Shown here: piece by piece, positions 1 through 50,089 of the stretch
Layout of the letters: the number at the start of each line of letters is the position of its first letter
Numbering within the stretch: position 1 is the stretch's first letter
Program-made: the position numbers and the translations under genes
The notes under the pieces: model-generated
Told to the model about the DNA's origin: nothing
Database searches by the model: none
What the model saw: the letters and a program-made list of their open reading frames with translations, nothing else
Assembly: GCA_050239825.1 (NCBI GenBank)
Contig: JBFXGO010000012.1
Span: 1 to 50,089 of the forward strand
Origin: a bacterium
GTDB taxonomy: Bacteria; Hydrothermota; 32-111
Direction of reading: 5' to 3'
Length of the DNA: 50,089 nt

Positions 1-416
1 CCATTCAGTTTTCAGACAGCTTAAAGAATCCGACGATAGATATTGGAGATACAATCTATGTTGACACAATGGCTATATGGGGCACGAGAGTCAAGAAACC
101 GTTTAAGAATCCGGTCGTATTAACGGGCAGTTTTGGGCCGACAGGGATACAAGAAAACCGTGAGCCATGTGCCTTGAGCTTGGGGACATGTACTTGTACT
201 GTCCCCACAATCAAGAGCCAATACATAATATGGAATACAAATGAAGAAGCGACATTAACAGTTTACGATATATCAGGAAGAGAATTAATTAAAGAGGAAT
301 CAAAGACAATAGGTGAACACAAAACAGACATCAGAGCATTAAAGAACGGGATATACTTTGTGAAACTGAGAGATGAGAATAAATCAATTACAGAGAAGAT
401 GGTAAAGATAAGATAG
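1..416 (+). CDS. 5'-truncated secreted protein with T9SS-type C-terminal sorting domain; paralog of 1027..2886
   Basis: Frame is open from base 3 (IQFSDSLKNP...). C-terminus VYDISGRE...LKNGIYFVKL...EKMVKIR is a typical type A CTD. Confidence 0.85.
   Translation, partial: IQFSDSLKNPTIDIGDTIYVDTMAIWGTRVKKPFKNPVVLTGSFGPTGIQENREPCALSLGTCTCTVPTIKSQYIIWNTNEEATLTVYDISGRELIKEESKTIGEHKTDIRALKNGIYFVKLRDENKSITEKMVKIR
1..416 (+). repeat. Direct repeat of 2471..2886 (offset 2470)
   Basis: 1-240 vs 2471-2710 differ at 2 positions; 241-416 vs 2711-2886 differ at about 37 of 176 (manual count). Confidence 0.97.
158..208 (+). repeat. In-frame heptamer repeats (CCnTGWG x3) plus TGGGGACA-N11-TGTCCCCA hairpin; second copy at 2628..2678
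   Basis: ccgtgag ccatgtg ccttgag ct tggggaca tgtacttgtac tgtccccac; the same motifs occur intergenically at 7037-7065 and 7174-7205. Confidence 0.85.
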
Positions 417-1026: not shown

Positions 1027-2886
1027 ATGAAAACCAAATTAATCATTTTCCTATTACTAATAAATTCAATGATTTTTGCTGATTATGAATTAAAACAATT
1101 ACATGATTTTTATGACATTGGAAATAATGGAAGGTTAGATATCCTTTTAGATGTTGGAAAGTATTATCCGTATGTGTCAATTCTTACTAATAGAACAAAT
1201 AATCCTTATTTTGAAATAATCCTTGAATATAAAAACAATATGTATAACATCAAAGATTCAATAGATTCTGCGGGCTATACAATTGGACATATTGATATAG
1301 ACAACAATTTGAAAAATGAAATAATAAGTATTCTTAATACTGGTGATTATTTAGGAGAAGATAGATTTTTTACACTTTCGGAGCAAAGCGATACCATTTC
1401 TTTGGACTTTACACCCAATTATATATCTATGGATTTTTTAGAAGGTTTAATTTGGCTATATCCTACCGGTCTCATAAAGAATAAGCCGACGATAGTGGGA
1501 GCGCCACCGATGGACTCAGATACAGGGTGGTTCTATATGGAATATGATTCAACCGGAGACAGTTTAAAGTTCGGACAGGTGTATAATGCATACTATGATG
1601 GAGAGTATAGGAGTATGGTAAGCTCAATGTGTATATGCAGATTTGATGATGACAGTTTGACAGATGTGATAATGGGAACAAGCAGGGGTCAGGAGTGGTG
1701 GGAAGCGACCGATGCGGAGAATGACTCATTTGCGCAAATAGACAGCTTTGAATGCCCGAGGGTTGGCACGACAGCGACATTCTTTGCGGGTGATTTGGAC
1801 AGAGACGGGAGGAATGAGTTCATAATATACGGAGGGGTGGCATTGATGCTTCCCTGCGAATGGGCAATGGGGATATTGGAATATAACGGAACGGACACGG
1901 TGCAGTTGATATACGAGGACACATTGAAGAAGGATTACGGAGCATACCCGAATGTATTGAAAGGGTCAGACGCAGACACAGGAGATATAGACGGAGACGG
2001 GTATAATGAACTTATATATGCGGCAGGATGTTTTTTGAAGGTGTACAAGACATTTGGGGACAATGATTTTAGGGTAATGTGGGAGATAGACAATGACACA
2101 TTTTCAGGGAGCAATGTAAGCGTATATGATTTCAACGGGAATGGCAGAGCAGAGATAATCTGGTCAGGGGCGAGCTATGAGGATTTGCCGTTGACTTATG
2201 GAATGGATGTGCAGAAGACATACATATTTGAGTATGACAGCAATTATAGTTATAATGTGATAGATTCAGCGAGGGGATTGGCTGGTAGGTTTCCTGAGGC
2301 TGGAGTTACAAGAGATGATTATGTGCAGATATTTTTCAATTGGGATACGGATATGCCGGAGATAAACAGTGGGAACATAGACAGTATATTGAGATTGAGT
2401 AACGGCCACACATGGCTTGATGGGAATGGGGATATAACACAGGCAGTATGGATAGGAGGCAAAAAGCTCACCATTCAGTTTTCAGACAGCTTAAAGAATC
2501 CGACGATAGATATTGGAGATACAATCTATGTTGACACAATGGCTATATGGGGCACGAGAGTCAAGAAACCGTTTAAGAATCCGGTCGTATTAACGGGGAG
2601 TTTTGGGCCGACAGGGATACAAGAAAACCGTGAGCCGTGTGCCTTGAGCTTGGGGACATGTACTTGTACTGTCCCCACAATCAAGAGCCAATACATAATA
2701 TGGAATACAACAATGACAAGCACACTAATAGTTTACGATATATCGGGAAGGGAGTTAATCAGAGAGGAATCAAAGACAAACGGAGAACACAAAACAGACA
2801 TCAGAGCATTAAAGAATGGGATATACTTTATAAAACTCAGTACCGAAAATCAATCAATCATAGAAAAAATGGTTAGGATAAAATAG
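1027..2886 (+). CDS. Secreted FG-GAP/VCBS-like repeat protein with T9SS-type CTD
   Basis: Signal peptide MKTKLIIFLLLINSMIFA; GDLDRDGRNE, GDIDGDGYNE and DFNGNGRAE motifs; C-terminal CTD. Confidence 0.85.
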   Translation: MKTKLIIFLLLINSMIFADYELKQLHDFYDIGNNGRLDILLDVGKYYPYVSILTNRTNNPYFEIILEYKNNMYNIKDSIDSAGYTIGHIDIDNNLKNEIISILNTGDYLGEDRFFTLSEQSDTISLDFTPNYISMDFLEGLIWLYPTGLIKNKPTIVGAPPMDSDTGWFYMEYDSTGDSLKFGQVYNAYYDGEYRSMVSSMCICRFDDDSLTDVIMGTSRGQEWWEATDAENDSFAQIDSFECPRVGTTATFFAGDLDRDGRNEFIIYGGVALMLPCEWAMGILEYNGTDTVQLIYEDTLKKDYGAYPNVLKGSDADTGDIDGDGYNELIYAAGCFLKVYKTFGDNDFRVMWEIDNDTFSGSNVSVYDFNGNGRAEIIWSGASYEDLPLTYGMDVQKTYIFEYDSNYSYNVIDSARGLAGRFPEAGVTRDDYVQIFFNWDTDMPEINSGNIDSILRLSNGHTWLDGNGDITQAVWIGGKKLTIQFSDSLKNPTIDIGDTIYVDTMAIWGTRVKKPFKNPVVLTGSFGPTGIQENREPCALSLGTCTCTVPTIKSQYIIWNTTMTSTLIVYDISGRELIREESKTNGEHKTDIRALKNGIYFIKLSTENQSIIEKMVRIK

Positions 2887-4595: not shown

Positions 4596-5078
4596 ATGAA
4601 GAGAATGACTTTAATATTATTGATTCTCATCTTTGTTCCAATGCTCTTTGGGCAGGAGAAGGCAGATTCAATGGCGGCGGACTCTATCTCGACTGATTCT
4701 TCAATGATACAGCAAGATTCCTCTTCAACTGTGAATTCATCATTGGTGGTTGATGCAAAGGAGACAAAGAATGTGAGCCCGCTGACTTTGACCCTATTGG
4801 GAATGCTTACTGTATTTTCCGGACTTTTGATAATGCAGTTATTTATAAATACCCTTAAGCTGATTTTGAACCCGCCTCCGAAAAAAATTGCAGTTACAAA
4901 GGAGGAGGAGGTAAACAAGGGTCTTCTAAGCAATGTGGATTTGACTGAAGATGAGATGGTAGCAACAATAACTGCGGTTATGATGGAGTCAAAACTTCAC
5001 CATTCGATTTCAAATGACAAATTAACAATAAAATGGCAGGATAAGAATCCTCACTGGATTTCAACAAGGAGAAACTAA
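4596..5078 (+). CDS. mmdD: OadG/MmdD-family decarboxylase subunit with extra signal peptide and Ser/Asp-rich linker
   Basis: GMLTVFSGLLIM transmembrane helix, EMVATITAVM, C-terminal W motif; position in operon. Confidence 0.75.
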   Translation: MKRMTLILLILIFVPMLFGQEKADSMAADSISTDSSMIQQDSSSTVNSSLVVDAKETKNVSPLTLTLLGMLTVFSGLLIMQLFINTLKLILNPPPKKIAVTKEEEVNKGLLSNVDLTEDEMVATITAVMMESKLHHSISNDKLTIKWQDKNPHWISTRRN

Positions 5079-5499: not shown

Positions 5500-6633
5500 A
5501 TGATTGAATTAATGAAGACATTTTATACATATACGGGCTTTGCCAATTTCGATTACAGATATCTTATAATGATAGCTGTATCAATGTTCTTTATATACCT
5601 TGCAGTCGCAAAAGAGTATGAACCGATGCTTCTTCTTCCAATAGGATTTGGAATACTTATCGGCAACATACCAATGCTCATTGGTCTGAAGGTCGGAATC
5701 TACGAACCCGGGTCGGTTTTAAACTATCTTTACTTTGGAGTGATAAACGGGCTCTATCCGCCTCTTATCTTCATGGGTATAGGAGCTATGACGGATTTTT
5801 CGACAATCTTATCAAATCCAAAGACAATTCTTCTGGGAGCCGCCGCGCAACTCGGAATATTCACAACATTCATTGCGGCATACTACCTTGGTTTCACTCC
5901 TGCTGAAGCCGGTTCGATAGGAATAATCGGAGGAGCGGACGGACCCACTGCAATATTTCTAACATCAAAACTGGCTCCTCACCTTATTGGTCCCATTGCG
6001 ATTGCGGCATACTCATACATGGCTCTTGTTCCTGTAATTCAGCCGCCTATTATGAATCTTCTTACTACTAAGAAGGAGAGGCTTATAAGGATGAAGAAAC
6101 CGAGAACAGTAAAAAAAATTGAGAAGATTTTGTTTCCGATTTTTGCTTTTACTGTTTCCGCATTCATAACACCTGCCGCAATTCCTCTTCTTGGAATGCT
6201 TTTCATGGGCAATATTCTAAGAGAGAGCGGAGTGACCAATCGTCTTGCCAAGACAGCCTCTAATGCTCTCATTGATATTTGCACCATCATGATAGGGCTT
6301 ACAGTCGGAGCATCAACTCAGGCAAATGTCTTTTTGACATGGTCATCTATAAAAATATTCATACTCGGTTGCGCCGCTTTTGCATTTTCCACTTTCGGAG
6401 GAATTCTGTTTGCAAAACTCATGAATCTCTTCCTCAAAACCGAAGACAAGATAAATCCTCTTATTGGTTCTGCAGGTGTCTCTGCAGTTCCTGATGCGGC
6501 GAGAGTGTCTGAGATGGTGGGAAGACAGAATGACCCCAACAACCACTTGTTGATGCATGCAATGGGTCCTAATGTTGCGGGAGTGATAGGTTCCGCGATT
6601 GCCGCCGGGATACTTCTCTCATTCTTCGGATAA
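5500..6633 (+). CDS. mmdB: Na+-translocating decarboxylase beta subunit (OadB/MmdB family)
   Basis: EPMLLLPIGFG, IGIIGGADGPTAIF, HAMGPNVAGVIGSA; multiple transmembrane helices. Confidence 0.95.
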   Translation: MIELMKTFYTYTGFANFDYRYLIMIAVSMFFIYLAVAKEYEPMLLLPIGFGILIGNIPMLIGLKVGIYEPGSVLNYLYFGVINGLYPPLIFMGIGAMTDFSTILSNPKTILLGAAAQLGIFTTFIAAYYLGFTPAEAGSIGIIGGADGPTAIFLTSKLAPHLIGPIAIAAYSYMALVPVIQPPIMNLLTTKKERLIRMKKPRTVKKIEKILFPIFAFTVSAFITPAAIPLLGMLFMGNILRESGVTNRLAKTASNALIDICTIMIGLTVGASTQANVFLTWSSIKIFILGCAAFAFSTFGGILFAKLMNLFLKTEDKINPLIGSAGVSAVPDAARVSEMVGRQNDPNNHLLMHAMGPNVAGVIGSAIAAGILLSFFG

Positions 6634-6660
6634 AAGAATTACTTGAATTTGATTTTTTTG

Positions 6661-6688
6661 GGGCGGACACTCTTGTTCGCCCTTTTTT
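6661..6688 (+). terminator. Intrinsic terminator of the mmd operon
   Basis: gggcggaca-ctct-tgttcgccc followed by T6. Confidence 0.85.
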
Positions 6689-6721
6689 ATTTTACACCAT
6701 GTCTTTTGCCCTTTTTTGGTG

Positions 6722-7334
6722 AAAAGGTAAAAAGATAAGAAGGTAAAACAATGGGGAGATTCCTTGTAAAGACAAAATCTTACTCAACCGTGTCACCCTG
6801 AACGCCTCTATGGTTATGACTATCGTGAAGGGTCTATCATTTTATTGTTAATTAATTATTGAAAATTGTTTGGGGGGCTGCACGTGGGTGTAGCGTCGGC
6901 TCACACACTCCGCTTCGCCGCTTTATCAAGATGGGTTAGCGTAGCAAGGGGTCGCCCACTTGATGGGCGTCTTCGCGGAGCGTCCTCGCCGACTTGTAGC
7001 TTTCACTTTCAATAAGTTATTTAATTGATTGTTGCAGTGGGGACACACCGAAGGAATGTCCCCACATTGGCGAGGGTGTAATGTGCGCGAACGCACATGA
7101 TAGAGGTATCGGGTTGCACCAGAACTTTGTGAAGATTACTGTAAAGAATAAATATTACTCAGCTCCGCGTATTAAGCTCATGGCACACGGCACATGGCTC
7201 AAGGCTGATTTAGTGGCTGCACTGGAATTTTTCCTCGGAACTGTAAAGGCAAAATCTTACTCAACTCACTGTATTGAATTTAAACTCTTATCCAGCACTC
7301 TTTTACCTTTTACCTTTTAACTTTGTAACTTTAC
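6722..7334. repeat. Composite non-coding repeat cassette (inverted AAAAGGTA-type arrays at both ends, three 24-bp direct repeats, four hairpins, heptamer array)
   Basis: Arrays at 6722-6745 and 7301-7334 in opposite orientation; TGTAAAGnnnAAATnTTACTCAnC at 6765, 7140 and 7242; hairpins at 6792-6836, 6856-7015, 7037-7065 and 7081-7098; heptamers at 7174-7205. Confidence 0.8.
6856..7015 (+). ncRNA. Candidate rod-like structured RNA or MITE-like element, family unknown
   Basis: Nested stems ttattgaaa/tttcaataa, gctgca/tgtagc, gtcggc/gccgac, ctccgc/gcggag, tatcaag-a-tggg/ccca-cttgatg; GC-rich core within AT-rich flanks. Confidence 0.45.
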
Positions 7335-7377
7335 ATATTGCTCTTGTCATTTTGCATACTTTGTTTATAATAAAAAT

Positions 7378-21931: not shown

Positions 21932-22854
21932 GAATAAAAAGAATTGTAATAGTATTTCTTATCCTGATTATTTTGTCCTCCTGCGCCATTGAAAACAGGC
22001 GCAGGAAAACATTTTTGGCGATGGGAAATATTCCGATAGAAGTGACTCTATATACAAAGGATAATCTTGATTTTGAAAAGACATTTGATGAAATTGAAAG
22101 TGAGATTAAGCGCCTTGATTCACTCTTTTCAAAGCACAATCCGATGTCGGAAGTCTCTCTTTTCAACAACTCGGCAAAGGGAATTCAGGCGTCTGAGGAC
22201 ATAATAACTCTTGTTATTCTCTCAGACTCAATGAAGAGAAAAACAAAAGGATATTTTGACATTGAAATAGAGACACTGCTTTCATACTATAAGAGATGCG
22301 AAGACAAGCAGAGCGACCTGTCAGACGACTCCATTCTCCTTTATACGGGAGCGATTTTGAAGGATTCGGTTTACATCAAGAATGATTCCATTCTGAAGAG
22401 TGATCCTGTTATCAAAATTGATTTTGGAGGAATCGCAAAAGGATATTTCGGGGATGCGATTGTGGCGATAATGAAGAAGAATCTTTTTAAGAAGGGAATC
22501 GCCAATCTCGGAGGAGATATTTCGGTTGTAAACGATGCGGATGATGATTTCTTCAAGGTTGGTATAAGAAGCGCGGCTGGAGACTCCGTGGCAAAGGTGG
22601 ATTCCATTCAAAACGGAGCAATCGTAACAAGCGGCGATTACTTCAGGTTCTACGAAATAAAAAACAAAAAATACTGCCATATAATAAATCCGAAAACCGG
22701 TTATCAGGCTGACAATATTCATTCCGTCACGGTTAAAGCCCTGACGGGATTTGAAGCAGACGCATTTGCCACTGCGGTTATGCTGATGGACAGTTTCGAG
22801 CTGGATGATTTCAAAGAAAAAAACAAAGAAGTATCAATCTATATTCAGAAATAG
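21928..22854 (+). CDS. apbE: FAD:protein FMN transferase lipoprotein
   Basis: Lipobox LSSC; DFGGIAKGY, TSGDY, HIINPKTG, ADAFATA. Confidence 0.93.
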   Translation: MRIKRIVIVFLILIILSSCAIENRRRKTFLAMGNIPIEVTLYTKDNLDFEKTFDEIESEIKRLDSLFSKHNPMSEVSLFNNSAKGIQASEDIITLVILSDSMKRKTKGYFDIEIETLLSYYKRCEDKQSDLSDDSILLYTGAILKDSVYIKNDSILKSDPVIKIDFGGIAKGYFGDAIVAIMKKNLFKKGIANLGGDISVVNDADDDFFKVGIRSAAGDSVAKVDSIQNGAIVTSGDYFRFYEIKNKKYCHIINPKTGYQADNIHSVTVKALTGFEADAFATAVMLMDSFELDDFKEKNKEVSIYIQK

Positions 22855-47083: not shown

Positions 47084-47278
47084 ATGAAAATAAGAAGCAT
47101 CATAAAGTTAATTGAAAAAGACGGATGGTATTTAGTTGCGACAAAAGGAAGTCACAGGCAATACAAACATCCTATAAAAGTGGGCAGAGTAACAATTGCC
47201 GGTCATCCAAATGATGACATTGCTCCCGGTACTCTAAACAGTATTTTAAAGCAAGCGAAATTAAAGGAGGATAAATAG
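47084..47278 (+). CDS. hicA: HicA toxin
   Basis: DGW...KGSHRQYKHP...GTLNSILKQA. Confidence 0.93.
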   Translation: MKIRSIIKLIEKDGWYLVATKGSHRQYKHPIKVGRVTIAGHPNDDIAPGTLNSILKQAKLKEDK

Positions 47279-47279
47279 A

Positions 47280-47492
47280 ATGCACCGATTTTTAATAGTT
47301 ATAGAAAAAGCAAATGGGAATTATTCCGCATATTCTCCAGATCTGCCGGGATGCATAGCTACCGGCACAACAAGAAAAAAAGCAGAGAAGAATATGCATG
47401 AGGCGATTGAAATGCATTTGCAGGGCATAAGAGAAGATGGTCTGTCAATTCCGCAGTCAACCGCCATAGCCGAATATGTTGCAGTAAAATAG
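47280..47492 (+). CDS. hicB: HicB antitoxin, short form
   Basis: YSAYSPDLPGCIATG...EAIEMHL. Confidence 0.92.
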   Translation: MHRFLIVIEKANGNYSAYSPDLPGCIATGTTRKKAEKNMHEAIEMHLQGIREDGLSIPQSTAIAEYVAVK

Positions 47493-47543: not shown

Positions 47544-47571
47544 GTAGGGGAGGGTTTTAAACCCTCCTTTT
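47544..47571 (+). terminator. GTAG-led REP-like hairpin / terminator
   Basis: gtagg-ggagggtt-tta-aaccctcc-tttt. Confidence 0.7.
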
Positions 47572-47650: not shown

Positions 47651-50089
47651 ATGAAGAACATATTTAAATTTCACAAGCATACCAGCATACCAACCCACCT
47701 GCGTACTAATATTTCAGTCATTCTGAAGTCCGCAGTAGTTACCTCTATCCTGAAGAATCTATCAAAGCGTACCAGCCAACCAGCTAACAAGCATACGAAT
47801 TTTGTCATTCTGAAGTCCGCAGTAGTTACCTCTATCCTGAAGAATCTATCAAAGCGTACCAGCCAACCAGCATACCAGCGAACGATCTTACTTCTCTCCT
47901 TGCTGTTCGGATTCGTGCTGTTGAATGCGCAGATGGTAGGGGAGCTTGGCAGATGGGAATACGGACCGACAGAGGCGATAGCAATAAAGGGAAATACAGC
48001 ATATATAAGTAGTGGAAGCTACTTATGGGTAATGGATATAAGCAATGAAAGCAACCCGAGATTAATAAGTGAAATGAAACTTGAGAACTATATACATTAC
48101 ATCAGAAGGATAGGGAATTACTTGTATGTGAGCAAGAATGATACATTGCTGAATATCTATGATATACATACAGATACAATACCAGTTTTGGTGAACCAGA
48201 TAGAAGGAGAGGATTCGGATTTTCCATGGAAAGAGATAATTTATACCGGAAATACTCTATATATTAGTGGATATTTCAATCGACAGTATTTTATAAACGA
48301 TACAATAAGTCCTACATTTACAAGGATAGTCGGTTTTACAAGAGATATAAATAATGATTCAACTGTATTAGTAGGAACAATGCAAGAAGATAGGGAGATA
48401 AGGGTATATGATCTAACCCAAATTGGTGATATATACGATCAAACAGATGATTACTACACAACAGAGAAGATAAGAGGAATAAGAGTAACCTACCCCTATG
48501 TTTACTTTGGCTATGGGAGCCAGGGGGTAGGAATAATGGATATAAGCAACTTGTATGATATAAAACTAAAGAAGACAGTGGCGACAGGCGGCAATACATA
48601 CGATGTGGAGATGATAGAGGAAACATTGCTTATAGCGGCGAGGGGATTAAATGGAATAGGGATATATGATGTAGAGGATGATACGCTATTAACGGAGATA
48701 GGAGCCTGCGAGACAAACGGCTATACATACGAATTGGAGGTAATAGGGAATAGATTGTATGCAGGAGCGAGAAGCGGCGGCTTAATCATAGTGGATATAA
48801 CAGATAAGAGCAACCCCACGGTGGTTGGTGAGTATAGAGGGTATGGAGAATGCAGGAGGATGACAATAGAGGGAGACAGGATGTATGTAGCGAGCGGGGA
48901 CGGTGGAGTAATGATAATGGATATAACTGACAGGGAGAATCCTGAAGTAATAAGCCAGTGCTGGACAAGGAATATAGGGGAAGATGTGGTAAAAGGCGGA
49001 GATTATCTTTATGTAGCAGACGGAGACAGCGGGTTAACAGTGGTAGATATCAGTGATGAAGATAATCCGAGTGTAGTGGCAGGAATTCCGACAGGATGTT
49101 ACGGAAGCTTTGCCGGTATATATGATAATGTGTGCATGATAGGCGGAAGAAGATTTTACTTATCTGGTGATACAGCGAAAGACGGAATAGGATTAATTGA
49201 TATAAGCACACCATCAAATCCTATTAAAGAAAACGAAGTAATGGATGGACATTCATATATATCTTTTCAATTGGATGACACAATAATGTATTGTGTGGGT
49301 GATGCAGGGGCATATGCGAGATATGAGATATGGAATATAAAAAATAGTGCGGTTCCAGTGTTAGAAGACAGCATAATGATATATTTAGGTAGTTATACGT
49401 CAGTAGCAGGAAAAGACACTATATCGGTGACAAATTATTTAGATACTTTGCTGTTTTATAATGTAAAAGACCTAAACAATGCCACTTTAATAAAGAGAAT
49501 ACAAAGTCCTGGCGGACAAACTGAAATGTTGATAGATAATGATGTATTATATACTCTCAATGGACAACCTTGGATGGTGATGTATGATATAAGCAATTTA
49601 CCAACAGTAGATACAATAGCAATAGAAACATTAAGAGTGGAAGCTTATGATATAAACAAACAGAATGAATATATATATACCACCCACAACCAATATGGTT
49701 TAAGCATATACGGGTTCGATATGACCCCGCCGAGTAAAATAACACTGATAGAGCCACAGGATGGAGACACAGCATATAATAACAGCATGGAAGTAACATG
49801 GCATAAATCAACAGACACAGGAGTGGGAATAGACAGGTATGAGGTGTATGTGAATGGGATAGAAGAGGGAGAGACAACAGATACGAGTATTACAGTAAAT
49901 ACAACATCAACAGGGACACGGAATGTGTGGGTAAAGGTGTATGACAGAGTGGGTAACAGCAGTTACTCAGATACGAATGCAGTGTATTTGCTTACAGGGA
50001 TAGAGGATGGAAGTAAAACAAAGGGAATAGAAAAGGAGCTGACGATAAAGACAACACTAAATAGGATAAGCGTATATAATGGAACAACA
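47651..50089 (+). CDS. 3'-truncated secreted LVIVD-repeat protein with Ig/FN3-like domain and probable CTD (absent from ORF track)
   Basis: Hand translation from ATG 47651 finds no stop before the window end; YLYVADGDSGLTVVDISDEDNP-type repeats; DMTPP...VKVYDRVGN; TGIED linker. Confidence 0.9.
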   Translation, partial: MKNIFKFHKHTSIPTHLRTNISVILKSAVVTSILKNLSKRTSQPANKHTNFVILKSAVVTSILKNLSKRTSQPAYQRTILLLSLLFGFVLLNAQMVGELGRWEYGPTEAIAIKGNTAYISSGSYLWVMDISNESNPRLISEMKLENYIHYIRRIGNYLYVSKNDTLLNIYDIHTDTIPVLVNQIEGEDSDFPWKEIIYTGNTLYISGYFNRQYFINDTISPTFTRIVGFTRDINNDSTVLVGTMQEDREIRVYDLTQIGDIYDQTDDYYTTEKIRGIRVTYPYVYFGYGSQGVGIMDISNLYDIKLKKTVATGGNTYDVEMIEETLLIAARGLNGIGIYDVEDDTLLTEIGACETNGYTYELEVIGNRLYAGARSGGLIIVDITDKSNPTVVGEYRGYGECRRMTIEGDRMYVASGDGGVMIMDITDRENPEVISQCWTRNIGEDVVKGGDYLYVADGDSGLTVVDISDEDNPSVVAGIPTGCYGSFAGIYDNVCMIGGRRFYLSGDTAKDGIGLIDISTPSNPIKENEVMDGHSYISFQLDDTIMYCVGDAGAYARYEIWNIKNSAVPVLEDSIMIYLGSYTSVAGKDTISVTNYLDTLLFYNVKDLNNATLIKRIQSPGGQTEMLIDNDVLYTLNGQPWMVMYDISNLPTVDTIAIETLRVEAYDINKQNEYIYTTHNQYGLSIYGFDMTPPSKITLIEPQDGDTAYNNSMEVTWHKSTDTGVGIDRYEVYVNGIEEGETTDTSITVNTTSTGTRNVWVKVYDRVGNSSYSDTNAVYLLTGIEDGSKTKGIEKELTIKTTLNRISVYNGTT
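47717..47871 (+). repeat. In-frame tandem duplication (68 identical bp, period 87 bp) of a REP-like hairpin plus octamers
   Basis: 47717-47784 is identical to 47804-47871. Confidence 0.95.

Follow-up and report, generated by a model that had tools for sequence, protein, structure and literature searches.

In the NIME arrays of Neisseria, a short conserved repeat is placed between variable modules of several families, and the resulting arrays are intergenic and dynamic. According to the account in PMC1797815, the repeat (dRS3) is 20 bp long with 6-bp arms, the RS elements range from 19 to 214 bp, and the arrays had at that time been seen only in Neisseria. A specific recombinase was proposed there, not demonstrated. 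The BIME and REPIN clusters associated with RAYT are hairpin-rich intergenic mosaics that include long imperfect hairpins of about 100 nt, tandem units that carry flanking DNA, and nested insertions, as described in parts of PMC3333891, PMC3116915 and PMC8266576. In particular, tandem and nested REPIN clusters are known (PMC3116915), and in vitro TnpA-REP is able to cleave, recombine and assemble tandem BIMEs (PMC3333891, PMC8266576). Inverted repeats around TIRYT transposase genes carry the motif GGGGWSAS, and in-frame copies of TIRYT and CGTC REPs occur in protein linkers (PMC3733652, PMC6006769). Finally, short heptamer arrays of unknown origin, such as TAACTGA arrays, have been described in other phyla; they are intergenic, lie upstream of genes and mix several units (PMC4679880). 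The region reported here has an architecture closest to that of the NIME arrays.

The stretch of DNA that was analyzed (hereafter the window) is 50,089 nucleotides long. A 744-bp gap holds the mosaic, with a gene for the beta-subunit of a Na+-translocating decarboxylase (OAD_beta, 5500-6633) upstream, and a sensor kinase gene followed by a sigma-54 activator gene on the other side. Homologues of the kinase exist at 61-68% identity. Unless noted, features are on the forward strand. Two host features limit the mosaic: the intrinsic terminator of the decarboxylase operon on the left (about 6660..6693) and a sigma-70-like promoter of the sensor kinase on the right (7344..7371, 11/12 match). The mosaic is thus located 3' of a terminator, and it has no internal promoter match. 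The original prediction, made from the DNA letters alone, held that the region contains no credible gene, and this is borne out in that none of the three short ORFs scanned within it has a Pfam match. An Rfam scan that it had suggested was also run and gave no match at gathering score in the window or in the three related loci introduced below; sub-threshold matches were noise only (best E 0.26, with E up to 10 allowed).

The most distinctive component is a 24-bp core, K, found at 6765..6788, 7140..7163 and 7242..7265. These are the positions and sequences that had been predicted, with 351 and 78 bp between copies. With up to three mismatches allowed, the K pattern occurs three times in the window as against 0.04 expected, and none of 100 shuffles reaches three. 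Likewise, the best pair of 24-mers differs by one mismatch, compared with six to nine in all 200 of 200 shuffles. The predicted GTAA-N10-TTAC dyad is present in all three copies; this 4-bp dyad is found twice more in the window, at 22624 and 33227. None of the copies has a fold (z -0.12, 0.86 and 0.62). The sequence GGyTGCACyrGAAyTTT, predicted upstream of copies 2 and 3, was confirmed at 7112 and 7215, and corresponds to what we call the L motif, a small hairpin arm plus T-tract.

The two intervening segments contain hairpin and heptamer modules, as had been proposed. After the first K copy comes a CGTC-REP-like hairpin (6791..6836) that has a TGTC tag and a loop of 21 nt and whose fold is not significant (z -0.47); its relatives are at 47717 and 47803. 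An AT-rich arm (6850..6864) is inverted to a right arm at 7007..7021, and the two enclose a rod hairpin of about 105 nt, rod B (6892..6996), whose start is overlapped by a small hairpin (6877..6894). The T hairpin (7037..7065) has the form GGGGACA...TGTCCCC (z -4.7) and carries the GGGGWSAS motif of TIRYT-type inverted repeats. It is followed by a REP-like hairpin with a 7-bp stem and no GTAG tag (7081..7098, z -2.7) and by an L motif (7112..7128) located 28 nt before the second K copy. The shorter segment consists of a heptamer array, H2 (7176..7206), whose relatives at 158-181 and 2628-2651 are within coding sequence on the opposite strand, and a second L motif (7215..7231), which lies 27 nt before the third K copy, as it does in three of the copies found elsewhere. 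A pyrimidine heptamer array, H1 (7300..7335), completes the mosaic.

One scan of 185,579 species genomes, in which the query was the 19 fixed positions of K, returned 12 matches at 11 loci. Four copies lie at three loci (L002, L006 and L010) of a single MAG, STE_119, and the chance of a K match is about 8e-5 per 2.5-Mb genome at 40% GC. The other eight loci have single matches. We set these aside as chance, because they are singletons without other modules and 4 to 18 matches are expected by chance in the scan at 50-40% GC; they come from unrelated taxa, four of the eight are within ORFs of at least 219 codons, and they have no common modules, apart from two unrelated pieces of 14 and 28 nt (E 0.01-0.03). 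One of the eight, in Rivihabitans (L003, 8001-8024), is a single intergenic match that is identical to window copy 1 at 25 of 26 positions; it is accompanied by no other module and is likewise treated as chance. Family evidence in this report therefore means two genomes and seven K copies. The nearest named relatives of an STE_119 protein are from a WOR-3 bacterium (71%) and Ca. Stahlbacteria (67%), and the named matches of a window protein are likewise from WOR-3. Judged from the names of protein matches alone, the hosts may belong to a WOR-3/Stahlbacteria-related clade.

The STE_119 copies occupy gaps of 536-773 bp, one between LexA and radical SAM genes, one between Hsp20 and LPG synthase genes, and one before an FAD oxidoreductase gene; all three loci differ from the window's own and are not orthologous to it. 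The mosaics of L006 and L010 lie between divergent promoters, and in all four loci a promoter match of 10-11/12 is present just past the K-H1 end. The original prediction had recommended searching related genomes for the 24-mer; the four further copies carry the same modules. It had also named the case that would count against it, namely a 24-mer unique to this locus that acts as a site for the downstream regulator. This case does not apply: K and its modules are found again at three unrelated loci, where modules have been gained, lost, nested and duplicated. Its view of the region as an accreting, modular, noncoding array that gathers several REP-like families is supported by the same recurrence. 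In blastn searches of the mosaic or its parts against plasmids and phages, only short, weak matches were obtained, mostly to the low-complexity heptamer array, with no real homologue.

Modules common to the four loci are dispersed upstream of promoters and have been gained, lost, nested, permuted and tandemly duplicated. They form a polar series consisting of a rod hairpin (B or D), the T hairpin, the L motif, K and a heptamer array; polarity is kept, and the start point varies. The L motif lies 27-28 nt before K in five of the seven copies. H1 is downstream of K in five of seven, and H2, a different heptamer array, follows a sixth. The T hairpin occurs in all four loci, and hairpins with GGGGWSAS number three in the window and at least four in L002, L006 and L010. 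Rod B has a homologue at 7791-7895 of L010, and both fold better than shuffles (z -3.1 in the window, z -3.2 in L010); one of their 31 pairs is compensatory. All three STE_119 loci contain rod D (z -7.1). The rods B and D share a core stem of nine pairs, in which 45 of 45 cells are paired; the stem shows one compensatory swap, which alone is not significant (55/500 shuffles). A GTAG precedes the window's rod B, and TTAG or ATAG occurs at the rods of its relatives, so that GTAG is found at one of five rods; no inverted tag closes the rods.

Rearrangements are visible at several scales. Window positions 6886-7066 align with 7785-7944 of L010 at 76% identity over 181 columns, and the window's AT-rich right arm resembles the stretch before the T hairpin in L006. 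L010 contains a 159-bp direct repeat at 94% identity, and the L006 mosaic has an H1 block at both its start and its end. In L006, the T hairpin takes the place of the tip (apical arm) of rod D; it is missing before the second K copy of L010 and doubled in L002. Rod D itself is cut short in L002 and in the second L010 unit. The shared repeat around the STE_119 K copies extends over 60-390 bp, and the spacers between K copies (351, 78 and 273 bp) contain different modules. Across five distinct types of flank, 19 of the 24 positions of K are invariant, and identity drops to background at -1 and at +24. The invariance is partly built in, because the STE_119 copies were found with a scan pattern that fixed those 19 positions; this does not hold for the sharp edges. 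Among the K variants, one copy has a 1-nt indel exactly at the 3' edge. As a further observation, the pentamer TAGCG directly precedes several modules (L010 7790, 8074, 8235 and 8371; L002 4692; L006 1390; window 6891) and may mark a preferred insertion or cleavage point.

We consider it probable that the region belongs to a dispersed, lineage-restricted family of non-autonomous intergenic mosaics, spread by a trans-acting HUH transposase of the RAYT/TIRYT type together with local amplification. The repeat-family part of this explanation is much firmer than the part concerning the enzyme, which we infer because the T hairpin carries GGGGWSAS, TnpA-REP builds tandem BIMEs in vitro, and tandem and nested REPIN clusters exist. 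A transposase of this HUH/Y1 type would recognize hairpins on single-stranded DNA, nick and transfer strands, and thereby place new copies within or next to existing ones. The arrays would then grow and be reshuffled through tandem duplication and through recombination between repeated K/L/H1 blocks, and slippage could change heptamer number. K, as the most conserved block, is probably recognized by a protein or located close to a cleavage point. Most likely the elements are selfish or neutral, and would be tolerated in the space that separates a terminator or promoter from the next promoter, as well as in flexible protein linkers.

Several findings speak against this explanation. Among 93 ORF queries drawn from the window and the STE_119 loci (about 84 kb), no Y1 transposase or other mobilizing gene was detected. 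The family is seen in two genomes only, and the linker evidence given below is at the protein level and comes from rows that are not independent. The GTAG tag is not conserved, the CGTC-like hairpin has its 21-nt loop and insignificant fold, and K has no fold, unlike REPs or dRS3. Covariation in the rods B and D amounts to the single nonsignificant event noted above. If an enzyme that acts on K or the rods is found, it would represent a new DNA-rearranging activity and bear on how mosaic arrays are built; if none is found, the family would be a lineage-specific repeat of modest interest. In either case, the mosaic adds an uncultured lineage to those with NIME/BIME-type repeats, and it has a conserved core that is not palindromic and rods that have no Rfam match. 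We found no description of such elements in WOR-3 in the mostly open-access literature covered.

The mosaic differs from each described system in specific ways. Compared with dRS3 as described in PMC1797815, K is longer (24 bp) and differs in sequence, and it has a 4-bp dyad and no fold in place of 6-bp arms; two of the three spacers exceed the RS range, and the modules, rods and heptamer arrays among them, follow one another with constant polarity. Unlike the units that the cited BIME and REPIN literature describes, a rod is not a pair of inverted GTAG-tagged REPs; the block with the highest conservation is no palindrome, and the 93 ORF queries include no RAYT gene. The T hairpin shares GGGGWSAS within an inverted repeat with the TIR repeats of TIRYT elements as reported in PMC3733652 and PMC6006769, and it differs in that no cognate transposase gene is adjacent to the mosaic; it also has no match among plasmids. 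Judged by the text description of CGTC REPs in PMC3733652, the TGTC tag at 6791 and 47803 and the 3-nt tail CTA agree, whereas the hairpin at 6791 has a mismatched stem and a 21-nt loop instead of a stem of 8-9 bp and a loop of 4-5 nt. The heptamers here use other units than the TAACTGA-type arrays of PMC4679880 and are tied to a conserved 24-mer and hairpin modules. Nor is the mosaic a CRISPR array: its spacers are 78-351 bp long and composed of repeated modules, and there is no cas Pfam match. Because the region fails the sequence tests for dRS3, REPIN, canonical CGTC REP, attC, MITE and CRISPR, we regard it as working like a NIME/BIME mosaic without being a member of either group.

The original prediction further proposed that the modules are joined at recombinase-like sites. 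A site-specific recombinase would then make its crossover at K, and each stretch from one K copy to the next would be a noncoding cassette, excised and integrated in circular form; the same model was proposed for dRS3 in NIME arrays (PMC1797815). The sharp K edges with different flanks fit such a joint and are the best evidence for it. The indel right at the 3' edge of one copy, the direct orientation of all copies within a locus, and the circularly permuted module order also agree, as does the (partly built-in) invariance of K. However, the arms of the dyad measure only 4 bp around a 10-nt center, L006 and L002 hold one K copy each yet several modules, and the breakpoints of the nested T hairpin, the missing T hairpin and the truncated rod D are away from K. 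The L motif upstream and H1 downstream travel with K (five of seven copies each), and the 93 ORF queries include no integrase or transposase.

The attC sites of integrons are hairpins with the consensus RYYYAAC ... GTTRRRY. By this consensus, the first box fits six of the seven K copies and the partner box fits none, and no GTTRRRY box occurs within 160 nt downstream in any of the seven; the integrase and gene cassettes of an integron array were not found in the scanned ORFs. K may also resemble the guide and cleavage tetramers of IS608 and dif-type sites, a likeness given no weight here. Overall, we judge a crossover at K to be possible but unlikely.

Modules of the mosaic also occur as peptides. 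On the reverse strand, H2 and T are found together and in frame at 158..209 and 2628..2679, in two T9SS cargo genes, where they lie in the linker before the T9SS sorting domain. In an alignment of T9SS cargo C-termini (28 of 35 homologues), the linker is variable; three distant homologues have no module peptides, and others have different module-like peptides at the same linker position. Exact words of at least five residues from the six-frame translation of four mosaics were present in 18 of 25 parsed linkers (25 of the 35 proteins could be parsed), as against 29 of 692 control windows, and they map to three module types (T, H2 and H1). These rows are related, some are identical, and so they are not independent. 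For this reason, and because the homologues are known as protein sequence only, we infer rather than observe that modules are swapped at this linker. If so, modules that become linker peptides in secreted proteins would be one way in which selfish repeats might give rise to protein variation. A broader proposal is that K is recognized or crossed over by a recombination system not described before, which assembles noncoding arrays resembling those of integrons chromosome-wide in the WOR-3 clade, and that the same modules are swapped in frame into one T9SS linker as a diversifying device. We consider this combination distinctly unlikely.

It is improbable, in our assessment, that the rods B and D, possibly with the L hairpin and its T-tract, are structured RNAs or transcription insulators that are kept by selection and spread by gene conversion. 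In favor are the significant rod folds and the conserved core stem, the terminator-like score of the L motif in three STE_119 copies, and the position of the mosaic directly upstream of promoters in all four loci. Against this, neither the window nor the three loci gave an Rfam match at gathering score, and the window mosaic follows a terminator and has no promoter match of its own. The L006 and L010 mosaics lie between divergent promoters, and two copies of rod D, one in L002 and one in the second unit of L010, are truncated.

A role for K as an operator or enhancer, bound by the downstream two-component sigma-54 regulator or another transcription factor, would account for three copies, each with a small dyad, ahead of a kinase and sigma-54 activator pair, and for the location of all seven copies upstream of promoters. 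Because the STE_119 copies and their modules lie beside unrelated genes (those for LexA/radical SAM, Hsp20/LPG synthase and FAD oxidoreductase), a local operator is very improbable. Moreover, those copies are embedded in a shared repeat of 60-390 bp, and the window's other sigma-54 activator locus has no K copy.

The idea that inverted octamer arrays form the ends of the region had to be abandoned. The left array is purine-rich with period 8 (6718-6748) and has its own local pyrimidine partner at 6702-6715, outside the predicted boundary at 6722; the whole feature (6702..6748) is not a conserved terminus. The inverted match between the two arrays is genuine at 13 of 14 positions (6719-6732 versus 7308-7321; 4 of 200 shuffles give one), but only the left array has period 8, and the right has period 7. 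All three related loci lack the purine-strand array, and in all three the pyrimidine array is an internal module downstream of K. Because the purine-strand array occurs in the window only, among the four loci compared, inverted ends are not a feature of the family. A classical MITE or decayed IS, with AAAAGGTA-type arrays as its terminal inverted repeats, is therefore extremely improbable: conserved terminal inverted repeats define a MITE, paired arrays are present in one of four loci, and inspection of the ends by eye shows no target duplication. Scarcely credible, and already largely refuted, is the view that K is a relic of a short coding frame (VKxKxYS). Positions 8-10 do vary as a whole codon, and a frame open from 7000 to 7320 includes the second and third K copies. 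However, the seven copies show no synonymous change, which makes a coding origin unlikely; in addition, L and K of copy 2 are shifted by 1 nt relative to each other, K in L002 is immediately followed by a stop, and there is no Pfam match.

Some additional features were noted in the course of this work. Near-identical CGTC-like hairpins at 47717 and 47803 lie amid period-8 arrays (47676-47883) in the 5' part of an ORF for an LVIVD-repeat gene. Just 3' of a hicAB pair (47084-47489), a perfect GTAG-tagged hairpin followed by a T run was seen by eye at 47544-47567, and looks like a canonical GTAG REP that doubles as a terminator. An idea that heptamer arrays flank genes for four-helix bundles found no literature support and was dropped; the three cyanobacterial plasmid matches that were examined proved instead to be in cas loci. 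These matches to H1 (L012, L013 and L014, at about 1501-1535) are all within CRISPR-cas loci, two of them directly before a cas1 or RAMP gene. At the left end of the L002 mosaic, a long imperfect hairpin (4735-4790) lies directly 3' of the upstream stop codon. Finally, an 18-bp palindrome with a 4-nt center in L010 (7679-7696) adjoins the lexA promoter, upstream of an operon of lexA, a small ORF and a Y-family polymerase gene, and is a candidate LexA box for this lineage.
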